IMG/VR virus record: IMGVR_UViG_3300001533_002564
Span: 40,189-104,188 of that record
Direction: 5' to 3' (one strand)
DNA: 64,000 bases
Source of the DNA: a virus
Position 1 is the first letter of the stretch, and every line of letters begins with the position of its first letter. This document shows, piece after piece, positions 25,378-63,644 of the stretch. Below the pieces are notes generated by a model, which worked only from the letters and a program-made list of their open reading frames with translations, ran no database searches and was not told the DNA's origin. The translations under genes were made by a program, and so were the position numbers.

Positions 25378-25941
25378 ATGAAAAAGAAAAAACAGTTCAA
25401 AAATATTGAAGATGAAAGAATGGGGTTATTTATGAATAATAATTCTTTTGATTTGGATATTATGTATGGTAGAAATTTTTTACAAACAGATAATGCACAA
25501 ACAGTTATTATTCATAAAATAAATCTTATTGAAACTAAATCACATGCTTTATATGGTCAATCAAAAACTAAAGATAAAAAATTTATGACACCAGTAACTA
25601 TAAATGTTATGGTTAATATTGAAGATAGTAAACAAGAATATTATGGTAATAGTCAGGGTGGAATATCACGTGATGATAGTGGAAGTATTAGTTTTGGTGT
25701 TTATCTCGAAGAATTAAAAGAAAAACAGATTGAAATTGATAGAGGTGATATTATTGAATACAATATGAGTGGTGAAAAAAATAGATATTACGAAGTTGAA
25801 AATGCAAATAATGTTACTGATGAAACAAAAAAAACAATTGGAGGATTCAAAAGTTACTGGAAAAAAGTTACTGGAGTTCCCGTAAAATCCGATTCAGTCC
25901 CATTTTATGATAATGAAGAAACTGGTGAATCAATGGTCTAA
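25378..25941 (+). CDS. Head-closure protein (gp14-like) with HEN-supplied C-terminus
   Basis: HALYGQS, I.RGDII..YYEV motifs; follows gp13-like gene. Confidence 0.6.
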   Translation: MKKKKQFKNIEDERMGLFMNNNSFDLDIMYGRNFLQTDNAQTVIIHKINLIETKSHALYGQSKTKDKKFMTPVTINVMVNIEDSKQEYYGNSQGGISRDDSGSISFGVYLEELKEKQIEIDRGDIIEYNMSGEKNRYYEVENANNVTDETKKTIGGFKSYWKKVTGVPVKSDSVPFYDNEETGESMV

Positions 25942-26970
25942 ATATATGTAATTAGTGAAATTATTACTTCTTAATCTATCCCAAATTAATTGTTGTTTCA
26001 ATTTAAGTTTATTTGATGCATCAGTTAATGAATGATATTTAACATCATCAATTTTAAACGGTTTATTATTTAATGCGTAATTATTACCCTTATTTTTTTT
26101 TGATATTTTTTTATTTATTTCTTCAATTGTTATTAATTCATTAATATTTTTTGGTTTGTTTTTATAAAAATAATTCATAAATGTTATAGTATTACTATTA
26201 ATACGATAAATTAGTGTTGCGTATTTAATTTTCAATTTTTGTGATGCTATTTTAGGGTTAATATATTCAACATCATTAATGACAACAGGATTGTTTTTAT
26301 ATGTTTGTTTCTGATTTTTTTTACGACAATCTTTATGATATTTAGCATATTTACTAATTTCTTTTCCGCATCCGCATATACAATAATATTTTTTCTTAAT
26401 AAATGGTTTATAAAAATATATTTTATGTTTTATAGAATCATATTCACCTATTTTTGGATTGTTTTCGTAATACCAGTTTTTATTTTTCCAATTTTTAAGT
26501 TTACTTGAAATTGATTTAATATCAACACATAATTCATTAGCAGCATCTTGTAATTTATCATATCTAATATTATTAATATAAAATGGTTTAGTGTGTTTAC
26601 CTAAATTACCAACACTCATTTTAAGACGAATTTCTTTTTGATTTGGATGTATTGATAAATCATAATTATTTCCTGAAGCAATTCGTGAAATATTATATAC
26701 GTTTTTCCAATTACTTATATTATTTAAATAATTTTGTTCTATCAATAAAACATCACTTTTTTTACACTTTTCTAATAATTCAACAATAAAAACATTTTTA
26801 CCATATTTATTATATGCATTTTGTAAATGTATACTATGATGACAATTTCTTTTTAATAATTCAAAATGTTTACGTATTCTTATTTTTATGTTATATGATG
26901 AACCAACATAATATTTATTATTGATAACATTAGTTATTTTATAAATTCCAGACACATTTAAATCTTTCAT
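25930..26970 (-). CDS. Free-standing GIY-YIG homing endonuclease
   Basis: SGIYKITN..NNKYYVGSS, HLQNAYNKYG, EQ.YL, YN; three repeated IND..Y.S...AS..L DNA-binding modules; late motif at 26985-26992. Confidence 0.88.
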   Translation of the reverse strand: MKDLNVSGIYKITNVINNKYYVGSSYNIKIRIRKHFELLKRNCHHSIHLQNAYNKYGKNVFIVELLEKCKKSDVLLIEQNYLNNISNWKNVYNISRIASGNNYDLSIHPNQKEIRLKMSVGNLGKHTKPFYINNIRYDKLQDAANELCVDIKSISSKLKNWKNKNWYYENNPKIGEYDSIKHKIYFYKPFIKKKYYCICGCGKEISKYAKYHKDCRKKNQKQTYKNNPVVINDVEYINPKIASQKLKIKYATLIYRINSNTITFMNYFYKNKPKNINELITIEEINKKISKKNKGNNYALNNKPFKIDDVKYHSLTDASNKLKLKQQLIWDRLRSNNFTNYIYLDH

Positions 26971-26999
26971 ATCACTAATTTAATATAAATACTTAGAAA

Positions 27000-27071
27000 T
27001 GGAAAAGAATTGTTGAAGTTCCTATTAAGGAAGATGTTGTTCCATTTTTAAGTGAAACAAAAGGGAGTTAA
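27000..27071 (+). pseudogene. Relic original 3' end of the gp14-like gene (WKRIVEVPIKEDVVPFLSETKGS*)
   Basis: 9/16 identical to WKKVTGVPVKSDSVPF at 25858; its stop abuts the convergent gene. Confidence 0.75.
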
Positions 27072-59400: not shown

Positions 59401-59683
59401 AGGATTTGGATTACAACCAATGATTGCAAATATAACATTACAAATGAAATTAATTGGTGGTCAATCATTGAAAGCACCAATTGACGCACTTCAAAATGCA
59501 GTTAGTTTTAATTATTATGCTAATTCAACATTTACTGATAGAGGTGTTTATAAAGCTGCAACAGAAGTAGCAAATGATAATTATTCTTATTTAAAAGGTG
59601 TTGTTATTAAAGAAAAAAATGAAAAATTAAATGCTGCATATGAAACATTAATTAATGATAAAGTAAAGGAAGGAGATGAATAA
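56405..59683 (+). CDS. Baseplate/tail-tube-initiator-like virion protein with inserted OmpA-like domain
   Basis: MWFPPY..., GRNEP.YNYQN.ER, PICILRVGDF..TKVII; internal ITISGYAS..YN..IAERR..TINYGD..RRVTI. Confidence 0.6.
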   Translation: MSRLLDGNIEYNGRTISIEEYREKISARSLYSIDNEYENTNLFSLNNKGNVASSISTVLNVIPQYNRMQVNTNLLGNTFDVLRDDGSALAKIGLIMLGKHMAYNSAMNLSVKYIPSVDLSQALKGNLKDVFTINHNNTITVKDSDNNTFLDNVGNTASNILGIDTYDVFGNANPFSKNPSNIDYLENTGKAQLSRFLGAVSLNIYKPLNNLTNSQYSQVLTEKMNTVGPKLLSSAKTIFSDNNSGQYRPIFNFDDNKAHPYFNRFLSFKLSIANVEASENMILSYSVTGDTVQEYAPTSEYIRFNFGDTTKKRPEDDINEIVKDISNFSGEDLNNQIVWGRDGVGDEAKNYINNLRGNNDSADNHPDSNIFNTNNIRKGILEYTRNLLNASEGNFVDMTRKVFKNGNHIIGFNGSPLWTGNNSEYSSGSRNDGKTGIRQHTILDPYDKVSKLIRFKGNTVYNNDSGNKYSVIYKNVLPRIHPTDDENSNKNLMFSLENLAIGTIRRDRFGIIDDEFGTPIPLSEVGQFGGRKMWFPPYNIQLNEVSTAKYESTVMVGRNEPMYNYQNSERSAVLSFSLLVDYPEQLRNLIGKNKNKEIADFFAFGGDKLPLESDLQQIEKKIDKLKKQLDDDSPTEPSDLSSKSDKSVNIYFQNNKPAKGEESVVIQTMYDNPNHYEIIEGLLSANDENGFGLNNDIYYVQGVVEKSNSINANDKYILIGGVNQYDKGINDNFGNVNRLTEYLKDFFDDEDNRKYYNITISGYASKLFLVEGGSTYNKKIAERRINAAIVLIKARLTALYDATVANDIINNNIQTINYGDSRANPISADPKNIHDKEVKEERRVTIKFARNSVPVDKKEQLKSASDIEREEKIKKEINILENERKIIENDIKENIFKERDEVILNSFESISKNKYYPVFHSQTPEDFHRRLTFLQQCTRQGAAKRYDVVDENGVLRAKNSVFGKQPICILRVGDFFNTKVIIESVTIDYNDTTWDLNPEGFGLQPMIANITLQMKLIGGQSLKAPIDALQNAVSFNYYANSTFTDRGVYKAATEVANDNYSYLKGVVIKEKNEKLNAAYETLINDKVKEGDE

Positions 59684-59999: not shown

Positions 60000-60030
60000 T
60001 TGTATTTCTCATAATAAATTATTAGGTTTG
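60000..60030 (+). promoter_or_regulatory. Bacteroidota promoter TTG-N20-TAGGTTTG
   Basis: Upstream of the Bro-N gene. Confidence 0.6.
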
Positions 60031-60061
60031 CAGTTACACAAATTGTAAATATGATAATATC

Positions 60062-60859
60062 ATGAAATTTAATGAAATTGTACATCAATTCCAACACAAT
60101 GTTTTTGGAAATCTTACAACAATAAGGAGTTTTAAAGATAAAAATAAAATTTGGTTTCTTGGTGCAGAAGTTCAAAAGTTTATTGGTCACAGTAATTTAA
60201 CACAAGCAATTAAAGATGCAAATTTAAATTTTGATGAATTTTTTAAATTTAAAAAACTATCTAATCCTCAGTTCTTTACAGAGGTGACTAAGCAGTCCTT
60301 AGTCGGCTATGGAAAGTATTCATCATCAATTACTTTCATTTCAGAGAGTGGACTTTATAAACTAATCCTTCGTTCAAATAAACCTGAAGCACAAAAATTC
60401 GCAGATTGGATAACTAGAGAAATTCTCCCTAAATTAAGACAAGCAGTTGAAGAAGATTTAGTATTTAAAAATACTTCTGTTGAAATTAGCAGACATCTTG
60501 ATATCTTACATCAAAAGCAAGAATCAAAAAATATTAATGGGTTTAATTTTCGAACTGGCGGTGTAAATAAAGCAGTAAAATATAATCGAAATAGTTGTTT
60601 AGACCATTCAGGACAAACACCTAGTGAATAAAAAAAATGGGCAGAAGAAAATGGTATACCTTCATCAAAAAGAACGTCAGGTAAAAAAGTTTTAAGATTA
60701 GTGAATATGCCTGTAGCAGCATCAATGTCATTAACTGATAGTTTGGTTTCAAATGGTATTTCATATGAAAAAGCATTACCAATAAGTAAATGTGCTGGAA
60801 AAGAATTATTTAAACAATTAATTGAAATAGGTGTAAAATCTAAAGAATTAGAATTATGA
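60062..60859 (+). pseudogene. Bro-N (antirepressor-like) DNA-binding protein with in-frame TAA at 60629
   Basis: FISESGLYKLILRSNKPEAQKFADWITREILP; frame continues 75 codons past the TAA to a TGA overlapping the next ATG. Confidence 0.75.
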
Positions 60860-60987
60860 AAAATAACATCGTAGTAATATTTTCTTCACATCTGAGCGAA
60901 GAAGAAAACCAAAAATTCATAAAACATATTGATAATACAATTGGTGTTAAACATAAAGTAGTTTGTTATCCTAATTTTAATAATTAA
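60856..60987 (+). pseudogene. Relic original 5' end (43 aa) of the downstream glycosyltransferase
   Basis: MKNNIVVIFSSHLSEEENQKFIKHIDNTIGVKHKVVCYPNFNN*; 30/42 identical to the N-terminus of 62016..63644. Confidence 0.9.
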
Positions 60988-61012
60988 GTATTTATATAAA
61001 AAATACTATAAA

Positions 61013-62035
61013 ATGAAAATATGGACGAATGAAGAAAAAGAATTTTTAACCAATTATTTTTCAATAAGTGGAACTAATTTTTGTATAAATGAACTAAATA
61101 GGAGTTGGTCATCGGTTATTGGAATGGCTACTAAATTAGGATTAAAAGCAAAAAAATCTAATTCATATACTAATAATGAATTAGATTTTTTAATAAGAAA
61201 TTATTCATCTCATGGTGTTGAATATTGTATGAATTATTTAGGAAGAACAAAACAAGGAATATGTGCGAAAGCACATAAATTAAATTTATATGTTGATGAT
61301 AATACTAAATCACAAAATATTAGTGAGAAAAGGAAAATTAATAACTATAAAAAATATGATGTTAATAATATAATTAATATTAATGATAAATATGTTATTT
61401 ATTTTTTAGGTTATTTGTGGGCAGATGGTAATTTAAATAAAACAAATTCATATTTAACATCAATTAATTTAATTAAAGATGATGCTGAGTTTTTGTATGA
61501 AATAATTAATTTATTTAGTTCTGGGTGGACAATTGGTGGTGAAATAAAAAAATATTGGAAAAACGATAAAGGTAAAATCAAACAAGCAAAAAATCAAAGA
61601 ACAATACGATGTTATTCACAAGAATTATATAAATTTTTATCCGAAAATGATTATAAAAATAAATCTGATGTTAATTTTTATAAAATTTGGAATAAATTTC
61701 CAAATAAATTTAAGTCATATTTTTTGTTAGGCTTATTTGATGGTGATGGTCATTTTAATTATCAATTTAGAAAAAACAAATATCATTCTGGAGAATTTGT
61801 AGTTAGTGGTTTATATAATTATGATTGGAGTATTTTAGAAAATTATTTTAATAATAATAATATTAAATATTCAATATATAGACTTAATGTTAAATTAGGT
61901 CAAGTATCAAGAATTATAGTAAGAAAGAAAGAATCATTAATTATATTATTTGATTTACTTTATCCTAATGAATTTCATGGTTTAGAAAGAAAATATTTAA
62001 AATTTTTAAAATATTATGAAAAAACGAAAAAATAA
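61013..62035 (+). CDS. Free-standing LAGLIDADG homing endonuclease with N-terminal Myb-like repeats
   Basis: WTNEEKEFL / YTNNELDFL repeats; YFLGYLWADG and FLLGLFDGDG; late motif at 60988. Confidence 0.87.
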   Translation: MKIWTNEEKEFLTNYFSISGTNFCINELNRSWSSVIGMATKLGLKAKKSNSYTNNELDFLIRNYSSHGVEYCMNYLGRTKQGICAKAHKLNLYVDDNTKSQNISEKRKINNYKKYDVNNIININDKYVIYFLGYLWADGNLNKTNSYLTSINLIKDDAEFLYEIINLFSSGWTIGGEIKKYWKNDKGKIKQAKNQRTIRCYSQELYKFLSENDYKNKSDVNFYKIWNKFPNKFKSYFLLGLFDGDGHFNYQFRKNKYHSGEFVVSGLYNYDWSILENYFNNNNIKYSIYRLNVKLGQVSRIIVRKKESLIILFDLLYPNEFHGLERKYLKFLKYYEKTKK

Positions 62036-63644
62036 AATTGTTGTAATATTTTCATCACATTTAGGTGATGAGAAAAATAATAAATTTATTAATCATATAC
62101 ATGAGACAATTGGGGTAAAACATGATGTTGTTTGTTACACGAATTATAATCAATATAGTCTTACTGAAATATATAATGATGCAATTGATAAATATAATAA
62201 TGAAAATGTAATTATGGTATTTTGTCATCCAGATATAATAATAAAAACAAAAAATTGGGGTAAGATTTTATTAATAAAATTTAATAGTACTTATTTAGAT
62301 ATAATTGGTGTTGCTGGAAGCACGTTTCTACCTGAATCAGGTACGTGGTGGGAAGACCGAAGTAAAATGTGTGGTATTGTTGAACATACAAATGAAATAA
62401 ATACTTGGGTTAATGAATATAGTCCAGAAATTCGTGGAATTAAGGAAGTAGTTATAATTGACGGATTATTTATGGCAGTTGATTGTAATAAGATTGTTCA
62501 TAAATTTGATATAAATTATAAGGGATTTCATTTTTATGAGATTTCAATGGTAGTTCCTAATTATCTGGATGGTTGTAATATAGGAGTAAGTACTTCAATA
62601 AGAATTTTACATAAGTCCGTTGGTCAAACTAATCAAGAATGGGAAAATAATAGACAGCAATTTGCAAAACAATATGCTGATGAACTTCCAATAAAACATG
62701 TTAGTGAAGATAAATTAAAGGTGTTAATCTGTTGTCAATTCTTTAAAAATTATACTGGTTCTGAAGTCAGTAATTATGAATTATCAAAGGAATTAGTTAA
62801 ATTAGGTTGTGATGTTACAATTATTTCATCAATGATAGGTGAACCATTATTAAGTAAAGCACAAAAAAATGGTGTTAAAGTTTATGGATTTAATAATTTA
62901 CCTAATCATAAATTAGTTGATGGAAAATTTAATTTTTATCAAAATGAAGTTGATTTTGATATTATTCATATTAATCATAAACCAATTGGTGAAATAATAT
63001 TACAACTTTATCCAAATACACCTGCTGTAATGCATGTTAGAAGTGAAGTAATACCAAGATTTGAAGAACCAATTATTAATCCAGTAATTAAACGTTATAT
63101 TAGTATTAGAGAAAGTATTACCGAATATATTAAGACATTTGGAATTGCTGATAATAAAATTATTGAAATTGACAATCCTTTTGACTCAACACGTTTTAAT
63201 ACTGATTATAAACCAGTAAAAAATAAAAAAGAAATTATATTATTTATTGGAACATTGGATTATTTACGGGAAATGATTTTACATGATTTAGCCAAAATGG
63301 TTAGAGAAAATAATCAAGAACTCTGGATTATCGGTGCTGATAATGGTGGGTATTCTGGTGAATTTACAAATCAGGAAAATATAAAATATCTTGGTGTTAA
63401 ATCAAATGTTGAAGATTATATTAAAAAATGTGATTATACTGCTGGTATTTTTAAAGGTAGAACAACAATTGAAGGATTTCTATGTGGAAAAAAAGGTTGG
63501 ATATATTATGTTGATAAAGACGGTAAGATTTTAGATAAAAAATTAACAGATGTTCCAGAAGATATTGAAAAATATAAATCGGAGTTTTCAGCAAACCAAG
63601 TATTTAAATTATATAATGATGTACTTGACGAAACTTGGTTATGA
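62016..63644 (+). CDS. Two-domain glycosyltransferase (GT-A + GT-B)
   Basis: YN.AI...VFCHPDI, IIGVAG, DGLFMA, GFHFY; then YTGSE...ELSKEL...G.DV, FIG, GRTTIEG. Confidence 0.82.
   Translation: MKKRKNKIVVIFSSHLGDEKNNKFINHIHETIGVKHDVVCYTNYNQYSLTEIYNDAIDKYNNENVIMVFCHPDIIIKTKNWGKILLIKFNSTYLDIIGVAGSTFLPESGTWWEDRSKMCGIVEHTNEINTWVNEYSPEIRGIKEVVIIDGLFMAVDCNKIVHKFDINYKGFHFYEISMVVPNYLDGCNIGVSTSIRILHKSVGQTNQEWENNRQQFAKQYADELPIKHVSEDKLKVLICCQFFKNYTGSEVSNYELSKELVKLGCDVTIISSMIGEPLLSKAQKNGVKVYGFNNLPNHKLVDGKFNFYQNEVDFDIIHINHKPIGEIILQLYPNTPAVMHVRSEVIPRFEEPIINPVIKRYISIRESITEYIKTFGIADNKIIEIDNPFDSTRFNTDYKPVKNKKEIILFIGTLDYLREMILHDLAKMVRENNQELWIIGADNGGYSGEFTNQENIKYLGVKSNVEDYIKKCDYTAGIFKGRTTIEGFLCGKKGWIYYVDKDGKILDKKLTDVPEDIEKYKSEFSANQVFKLYNDVLDETWL

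Follow-up and report, generated by a model that had tools for sequence, protein, structure and literature searches.

Probable one-sided homing of a free-standing LAGLIDADG endonuclease gene and a stranded glycosyltransferase start in a putative jumbo phage

Endonuclease genes that bring along a replacement for the gene terminus they displace are known from fungal mitochondria. There, the open reading frames (ORFs) called mORFs are found with a foreign gene terminus in atp6 of Allomyces macrogynus and in atp6, atp9, cox2 and nad3 of Glomus sp. (PMC3630166), and partial duplications of cob and atp6 have been described in Endoconidiophora (PMC6279837). In bacteriophage T4, intronless homing of homing endonuclease genes (HEGs) that are free-standing, with co-conversion of flanking genes, is documented for SegF, SegG, SegB and MobE (PMC2988022, PMC2330249, PMC2790892). 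When one flank is non-homologous, double-strand breaks in the T4 system are repaired illegitimately at microhomologies, according to the account of Parker, Belisle and Belfort 1999 that is cited in PMC2988022. Insertions of HEGs that split phage genes are also on record, e.g. Aeh1 nrdA/mobE, T4 gene 39-60/mobA and phage 25 gene 43 (PMC2988022). Here we describe a locus in the virus record IMGVR_UViG_3300001533_002564 of IMG/VR, in which a LAGLIDADG HEG lies between what appears to be the stranded native start of a glycosyltransferase (GT) gene and a full-length GT gene with a start of another type. The stretch analyzed (the window) comprises the last 64 kb of this 104-kb record, which is estimated to be about one third complete. 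Coordinates are positions in the window of 64,000 nucleotides (nt), and L and P numbers are labels for related loci and proteins. Because the relatives of the window are found on contigs of 220-360 kb, the window can be regarded as a fragment of an AT-rich jumbo phage.

Between positions 59683 and 64000, the + strand carries in this order a gene of 103 amino acids (aa), a Bro-N gene, a 43-aa ORF, the LAGLIDADG gene and a GT gene of 542 aa. Two types of GT start can be told apart among the relatives, type A with the pattern ...SEEENQKF...HK..CYPNFNQ.SLP and type B with the pattern ...GDEKNN.F...HD..CYTNYNQYSLT. The features of the locus are as follows.

60856..60981, + strand: putative relic, codons 1-42 of the native type-A GT (30/41 aa to the GT start; starts of relatives)
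60974..60984, no strand assigned: left junction, where ATTTTAAT matches the native GT at 8/8 positions and the spacer upstream of the L138 HEG at 7/8 (DNA alignment and native type-A sequences)
60982..61012, + strand: putative 5' flank of the HEG cassette, 31 nt (alignment with the L138 spacer directly upstream of the HEG ATG)
61013..62035, + strand: free-standing two-motif LAGLIDADG HEG, 340 aa, with two N-terminal helical repeats (Pfam, PHROG, motifs, predicted fold)
62016..63644, + strand: working GT, 542 aa, Glyco_tranf_2_5 and Glyco_transf_4 (Pfam; the trees of the N- and C-domains disagree)
62016..62690, + strand: apparently foreign type-B GT segment, i.e. the start and the whole Glyco_tranf_2_5 domain with a 2-codon DE insertion (tree, AU test, codon alignment)
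62690..63165, + strand: likely interval of the right-hand homologous crossover (informative sites)
60062..60859, + strand: Bro-N family gene, upstream context (Pfam Bro-N, E 9e-19)

The 43-aa ORF spans 60856-60987, with its TAA at 60985-60987, and at its start the ATG and the stop (TGA) of the Bro-family ORF upstream overlap as ATGA. When compared with the 542-aa GT by BLASTP, it matched residues 5-45 with 30 identities in 41 positions (E 7e-18), close to the 30/42 counted in an earlier reading made from the sequence alone; at the DNA level, 93/123 nt (about 76%) are shared with the start of the working GT. The ORF is of type A. It agrees at 36-38 of 41 residues with the GT starts of four relatives without the HEG (L001, L002, L004 and L145), and is 85% identical to L001 in nucleotides. 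The same relative is also nearest for the backbone, measured over the 806 nt that immediately precede the locus (84% nt, versus 80% for L138), and for the C-domain of the window GT (84% aa; support 98/98 for the clade of the window, L001 and L002). Since relic, upstream backbone and C-domain share their nearest relative at similar divergence, the 43-aa ORF appears to preserve the native GT start, as the sequence-only reading had proposed from the ATGA coupling.

For comparison, about 30 distinct syntenic loci were collected from IMG/VR scans and from one metagenome scan (at least two loci listed). They share the order of a large 1092-aa protein, the 103-aa gene (upstream of the Bro-N gene in the window, and conserved among the relatives), a variable slot and the GT. 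By tblastn, a check already suggested by the sequence-only reading, each of these loci contained a single GT start, contiguous with the GT body. No counterpart of the relic was detected in any of them, and relatives without the HEG had neither a second start nor a stand-alone peptide of this kind. Across the relatives, this variable slot in front of the GT is a hot spot for cargo; it holds either nothing, or a Bro-N, KilA-N, methyltransferase or AAA ATPase gene, small ORFs of unknown function, or endonuclease genes. Searches of INPHARED phage records (blastn and tblastn) gave no match to the region.

The endonuclease itself was recognized by Pfam LAGLIDADG_3 (24.8 bits, with a gathering cut-off of 22.5) and by PHROG 4645, an endonuclease family (E 6e-14). 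Its two motifs with their acidic residues, LGYLWADG (D138) and LGLFDGDG (D243/D245), are conserved in 20 homologues that share 56-75% identity, and vary little or not at all across 21 homologues. An AF2/AlphaFold model (pLDDT 89.3) was matched by Foldseek with probability 1.0 to bI3 maturase, I-AniI, I-SceI, I-OnuI and I-DmoI, and the predicted structure shows the pseudo-dimeric alpha-beta-beta-alpha-beta-beta-alpha fold of LAGLIDADG enzymes. By sequence, a hidden Markov model search with the HEG profile found no match among PDB chains. The gene is free-standing, with its own start and stop codons, and its L138 homologue lies in an intergenic spacer; no Rfam family indicative of intron RNA was found at E<=1 within 60000-63000. 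It occurs once in the 104-kb record. As had been noted from the sequence, it lies between the TAA of the relic and the GT with its 3' end across the new ATG; the overlap with the GT start (62016) measures 20 nt. Among the syntenic loci, the HEG is present in the window, in L138 and, as a paralogue, in L062, and is absent from about 28. The closest homologues are 74-75% identical in aa (74% for L138, 75% for P0002).

Paralogues of the HEG occupy two sites in the GT cluster of the relatives: (i) before the N-domain gene (L062, first copy) and (ii) between the N-domain gene and the next GT (L062, second copy; L063; L139). In L062 (3248-6041), a stand-alone GT N-domain gene lies between two LAGLIDADG paralogues with 43% and 59% identity to the HEG of the window, and the overlap of each with the start of the gene that follows is 14 nt.

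The start of the working GT belongs to type B. It agrees with the starts of L144 and L151 at 38 of 41 residues and is 88% identical in nucleotides to L144 and L138, compared with 76% to L001. An arrangement of the kind expected for a donor is found in L138, a metagenome contig on which the 103-aa gene is followed by a KilA-N gene, a spacer of 32 nt, a LAGLIDADG gene and the GT start, with no relic. There, the HEG is 74% identical in aa to that of the window and overlaps the GT start by the same 20 nt, and the GT start is identical to the working start of the window at 32 of 36 positions. Across the 3' end of the HEG and the GT start, the window and L138 agree at 93% of nucleotides, against 80% in the backbone. 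The endonuclease of L138 also occurs on a 4403-nt Logan contig, together with a whole 541-aa GT that has a type-B start. As L138 and this contig carry both together, HEG and type-B GT start form a physically linked unit in another lineage.

Two copies of a gene start in direct orientation on either side of a mobile gene are also what a tandem or target-site duplication within the genome, followed by divergence, would leave behind. The copies, however, are only 76% identical to each other in nucleotides, compared with 85% between the relic and L001 and 88% between the new start and L138 or L144, and they fall into different tree groups; moreover, L138 has a start of the new type linked to the HEG without any duplication. 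Since each copy is nearer to alleles of other phages than to its counterpart, a local origin of the second start has, in our estimation, almost no probability. The proposal of the sequence-only reading that the new start arrived with the HEG from another phage agrees with these comparisons.

The left end of the inserted segment was read from assembled contigs. Type-A relatives have ...CCN AAT TTT AAT | CAA TAY AGT... at this point, and in the window the native homology ends after codon 42. Exactly where it stops, the 5' flank begins that is common to the window and L138: window 60979-61012 (AATAATTAAGTATTTATATAAAAAATACTATAAA) aligns to L138 AATAATGAAGTATTTATGT-AGAAATACGTTAAA as far as the HEG ATG. 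This flank provides codon 43 of the relic (AAT) and its TAA, and the downstream 'GTATTTATATAAA...' likewise aligns with the L138 spacer. Of the 43-aa old start that had been described from the sequence, codons 1-42 are thus retained as native, while the last codon and the stop are assigned to the HEG flank. The crossover that had been expected near CY.N.NQ is replaced, from the alignment with L138, by an illegitimate left junction between native codon 42 and the HEG 5' flank. The left joint is non-homologous and of the microhomology type, situated inside an 8-nt A/T stretch.

A junction of this form could also be produced in silico, if a type-A strain had been joined to an HEG-bearing type-B strain; the record is a metagenome assembly, and related strains co-occur in such samples. 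Codon 42 and the non-homologous spacer share only about 8 nt, far below the k-mers of assemblers. Furthermore, the exact 43-aa ORF that bears the junction was found on five contigs from two assembly sources (JGI and Logan), which argues against a one-off chimera; the HEG is on record on four contigs and the GT on four. We regard an assembly artifact as very improbable.

On the right, the replaced tract extends far into the GT. Residues 46-225 of the window GT group with the type-B N-domains of L039, L140 and L141 (support 98/96), and placing the window N-domain with L001 and L002 was rejected by the approximately unbiased (AU) test (p 1e-4). In the codon alignment, the window follows type B through ...GAT GAA CTT CCA, including the DE insertion, and is L001-like from ATA AAA CAT GTT onward (nt ~62690). 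Informative sites, scored against fused type-B GTs (P0041 and P0042) and GTs of the L001 clade, were B-like up to residue ~225, silent over 226-380, and L001-like from ~383. The working GT is chimeric, with an N-domain of type B joined to a GT4 C-domain that resembles L001, and we place the homologous crossover between residues ~225 and ~383 (nt ~62690-~63165). The GT has remained whole and is presumably active. The sequence-only reading had the GT start replaced by a new N-terminus, which holds; the foreign tract is not limited to about 45 codons, as trees and informative sites extend it to the whole N-domain.

Two narrower statements about the right side were considered and dropped. One would have let the crossover coincide with the boundary of the domains (DELP|IKHVSE, nt ~62690); the fused type-B GT P0041, which has a type-B N-domain and is 79% identical overall, shares this boundary, and the joint may be older. 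The other was a contrast in which all fused GTs form one N-domain clade: a placement of the window there was not rejected (AU p 0.13), and the fused GTs of L005 and L009 lie outside that clade.

In the GT family at large, modules are frequently shuffled at one boundary (near window position 62690). The N-domain exists as a stand-alone gene in L039, L042, L062, L063 and L139; it is fused to a GT4 domain in the window and in L001-L012, and to unrelated C-domains in L140, L141, L144, L145, L147 and L155.

The direction of transfer deserves separate consideration, since the polarity might be the reverse: a native HEG with an L138-like type-B GT, into whose cargo slot a Bro gene with 42 type-A codons had come by one-sided recombination. 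The anatomy of the junction would look alike in both cases, the slot that precedes the GT does receive varied cargo, including Bro-N genes, and a Bro gene directly followed by a type-A GT exists in L139 and L040. What tells against it is the affinity to L001 of the relic, the upstream backbone and the C-domain alike, whereas the DNA close to the HEG is nearer to L138 (88-93%) than the backbone is (80%). An additional, earlier event would also be needed to place a type-B N-domain on an L001-like C-domain. We therefore consider reversed polarity unlikely, while giving it somewhat more weight than any of the other alternatives.

The reading that we prefer, and hold to be probable, is one-sided homing with illegitimate repair on the left. 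In the ancestral state, a Bro gene would have been followed by a type-A GT with the ATGA overlap. A co-infecting relative would have had the arrangement of L138, in which a type-B GT is closely preceded by a free-standing LAGLIDADG HEG. A break would then have been made in the type-A GT of the recipient, most likely by the HEG, at codon 42 or downstream of it. At the right end, homologous recombination with the donor within GT residues ~225-~383 would have copied in the HEG together with the type-B N-domain and its start codon. The left end would have lacked nearby homology, the KilA-N cargo of the donor and the Bro cargo of the recipient being unrelated, and may have been sealed illegitimately where native codons 40-42 share the 8-nt A/T microhomology with the spacer before the HEG. 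The product would consist of native codons 1-42, the 31-nt HEG flank with its stop codon, the HEG, and a foreign N-domain on a native-like C-domain. That the GT start and N-domain next to the HEG are of another lineage than the backbone and C-domain corresponds to co-conversion of flanking donor sequence. The duplication, the native and foreign affinities of the two starts, the donor-type arrangement, the place of the left junction and the chimerism of the GT domains can be read from the sequences; we infer the role of the HEG as break maker, the position of the break, and the occurrence of all changes in a single event. As a guess, the target of the HEG may lie at or downstream of native GT codon 42 and span roughly codons 38-48.

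Several observations weigh against this account. The first 50 codons of the GT are highly mosaic (120 homologues), and fused type-B GTs exist elsewhere (P0041), so part of the discordance between N- and C-domain could predate the HEG event and the tract that came with the HEG could be shorter than the N-domain. When these 120 homologues were examined, by sequence alone, for a directional excess of 5'-B/3'-A mosaics, the patterns were too noisy to show one. In a genome rich in A and T, an A/T microhomology of 8 nt carries little weight, and the DNA around codons 38-48 was not unusually conserved among type-A genomes. Finally, the actual donor is absent among the sampled sequences, the best relatives being 76-79% identical for the N-domain and 74-75% for the HEG.

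Whatever its route of origin, the relic might have been kept for a use, either as a small peptide or as an upstream ORF from which ribosomes or transcription are passed on to the HEG; the same origin is compatible with both. The ORF is intact over 42 codons and has retained the ATGA overlap. Between its stop and the HEG ATG there are 25 nt, and in L138 there are 32 nt between the KilA-N stop and the HEG ATG; a promoter scan found no sigma-70-like promoter above chance before the HEG. Yet the relic is confined to the window lineage, without a stand-alone homologue in the approximately 30 relatives, and a cluster look-up yielded, besides the relic itself, only a truncated or frameshifted fragment of a type-A GT. 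It has diverged from L001 as much as the backbone has, so that a recent origin explains why it is intact; a 42-residue piece of a GT-A fold would, in addition, be unlikely to fold alone. A functional relic is on balance distinctly improbable. Probably, the relic is a functionless by-product that is still placed for translation via the ATGA overlap.

The association of type-B starts with endonucleases extends beyond the window. A recognizable HEG lies directly upstream in 4/8 loci with a type-B start and in 0/23 of the others, uncorrected for relatedness. The four loci are the window, L138 and L062, with two LAGLIDADG lineages, and L039, with a phrog_3339 endonuclease; a fifth type-B locus, L144, has a GIY-YIG-associated ORF upstream, which we treat as a lead only. 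On the basis of these counts, type B may be an allele that travels with endonucleases. Tentatively, and with less confidence than we place in the homing event itself, the 5' segment of the type-B GT could be a portable cleavage-immunity allele that forms a composite cassette with whichever HEG precedes it and invades related jumbo phages via one-sided homology. The HEGs able to pair with such a cassette would comprise two LAGLIDADG lineages, the phrog_3339 homing endonuclease, and possibly the GIY-YIG-related gene. If this were true, HEGs would repeatedly drive swaps of catalytic domains, and possibly of specificity, in phage GT clusters.

Individual loci with type-B starts showed further features: (i) in L039 (4077-5960), a type-B GT N-domain gene that stands alone is directly preceded by a 627-aa phrog_3339 homing endonuclease with DUF7487 repeats, i.e. 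an HEG of a different family at the same site as the LAGLIDADG HEG of the window; (ii) in L144 (2956-4020), a 354-aa ORF with repeats (phrog_20046) has 20 nt in common with the type-B GT start, as the LAGLIDADG gene does, and its neighbors in a protein atlas are clusters with GIY-YIG or DUF723 in half of their members; and (iii) in L151 (3980-4040), a Bro gene is followed by a type-B GT without an HEG, with the junction ATGAAAAATATTATGAAGCAG... At this junction, a type-A-like start (ATGAAAAATA) runs into 8 nt identical to the last codons of the HEG (AAAATATT) before the type-B ATG. This could be the footprint of a deletion between short repeats through which a window-like ancestor lost relic and HEG; the match is weak, being short and AT-rich.

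Side observations were also made on neighboring and unrelated genes. The Bro-N gene of the window has an in-frame TAA at 60629-60631, where the whole homologues of L151, L139 and L042 (265-280 aa) have Leu or Ile (PSE*KKWAE in the window vs PSELKSWAE in the homologues); the codon might reflect a nonsense mutation, or the gene might be split or the consensus wrong. In L139 (2775-3458), a Bro-N domain is fused to a C-terminal part in which a motif (..FYLPELKIGIEFDE..) resembles Vsr/DUF559, so that the protein may join Bro to a nuclease. Elsewhere in the window (region 25378-27071), a + strand gene borders at its end on an antisense GIY-YIG-type ORF (- strand, 25930-26970).

The locus offers a clean natural record of a free-standing HEG that entered a genome whose upstream neighborhood differs from that of its donor. 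The cost of entry would have been a stranded gene start and the consequence a domain-swapped enzyme. The locus also suggests that HEGs contribute to the modular shuffling of GT domains in environmental jumbo phages. The end of the relic yields a testable position for the HEG target, and types A and B would provide a natural pair of sensitive and immune alleles.

Compared with the systems described so far, the fungal mORFs are similar in that a LAGLIDADG or GIY-YIG ORF together with a diverged foreign terminus keeps the gene whole, while the native terminus is stranded as a relic; in both, the native piece matches a close relative and the inserted piece groups elsewhere. They differ in that the fungal cases concern the C-terminus, with the relic downstream, in an organelle, whereas the window concerns the N-terminus with the start codon, with the relic upstream, in a phage. 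In the window, the relic is also still coupled to the stop codon of its neighbor, and the replaced tract amounts to a whole catalytic domain (at least 225 codons). With intronless homing in T4, the locus has in common an HEG between genes, presumed cleavage in the neighboring gene of HEG-less relatives, chimeric neighbors, and co-inheritance of flanking donor markers; the classical events, however, are homologous on both sides and leave no duplication, and the T4 enzymes are of the GIY-YIG or HNH type rather than LAGLIDADG. Phage genes split by HEGs likewise have the HEG inside what is a single gene in relatives, but their halves are both functional and assemble, whereas the upstream piece in the window is redundant and a full replacement came with the HEG.

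In the literature searched, we found no phage report of the N-terminal form, i.e. an HEG with a foreign gene start and the native start stranded. The pattern in which an endonuclease brings a replacement terminus would accordingly be extended from C-termini to an N-terminus with its start codon, and from fungal mitochondria to phage. As far as the cited account describes it, one-sided homing in T4 would be expected to give a product like that in the window, combining homology on one side with a junction at a microhomology after degradation on the other; in the window, the right side would be the homologous one and the left joint the one at 8 nt. That system was an engineered intron and plasmid arrangement in the laboratory, whereas the window presents a natural case that is fixed in an environmental phage lineage. 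The principle is already known from fungal mitochondria and T4 genetics, but is seldom seen this clean in phage.

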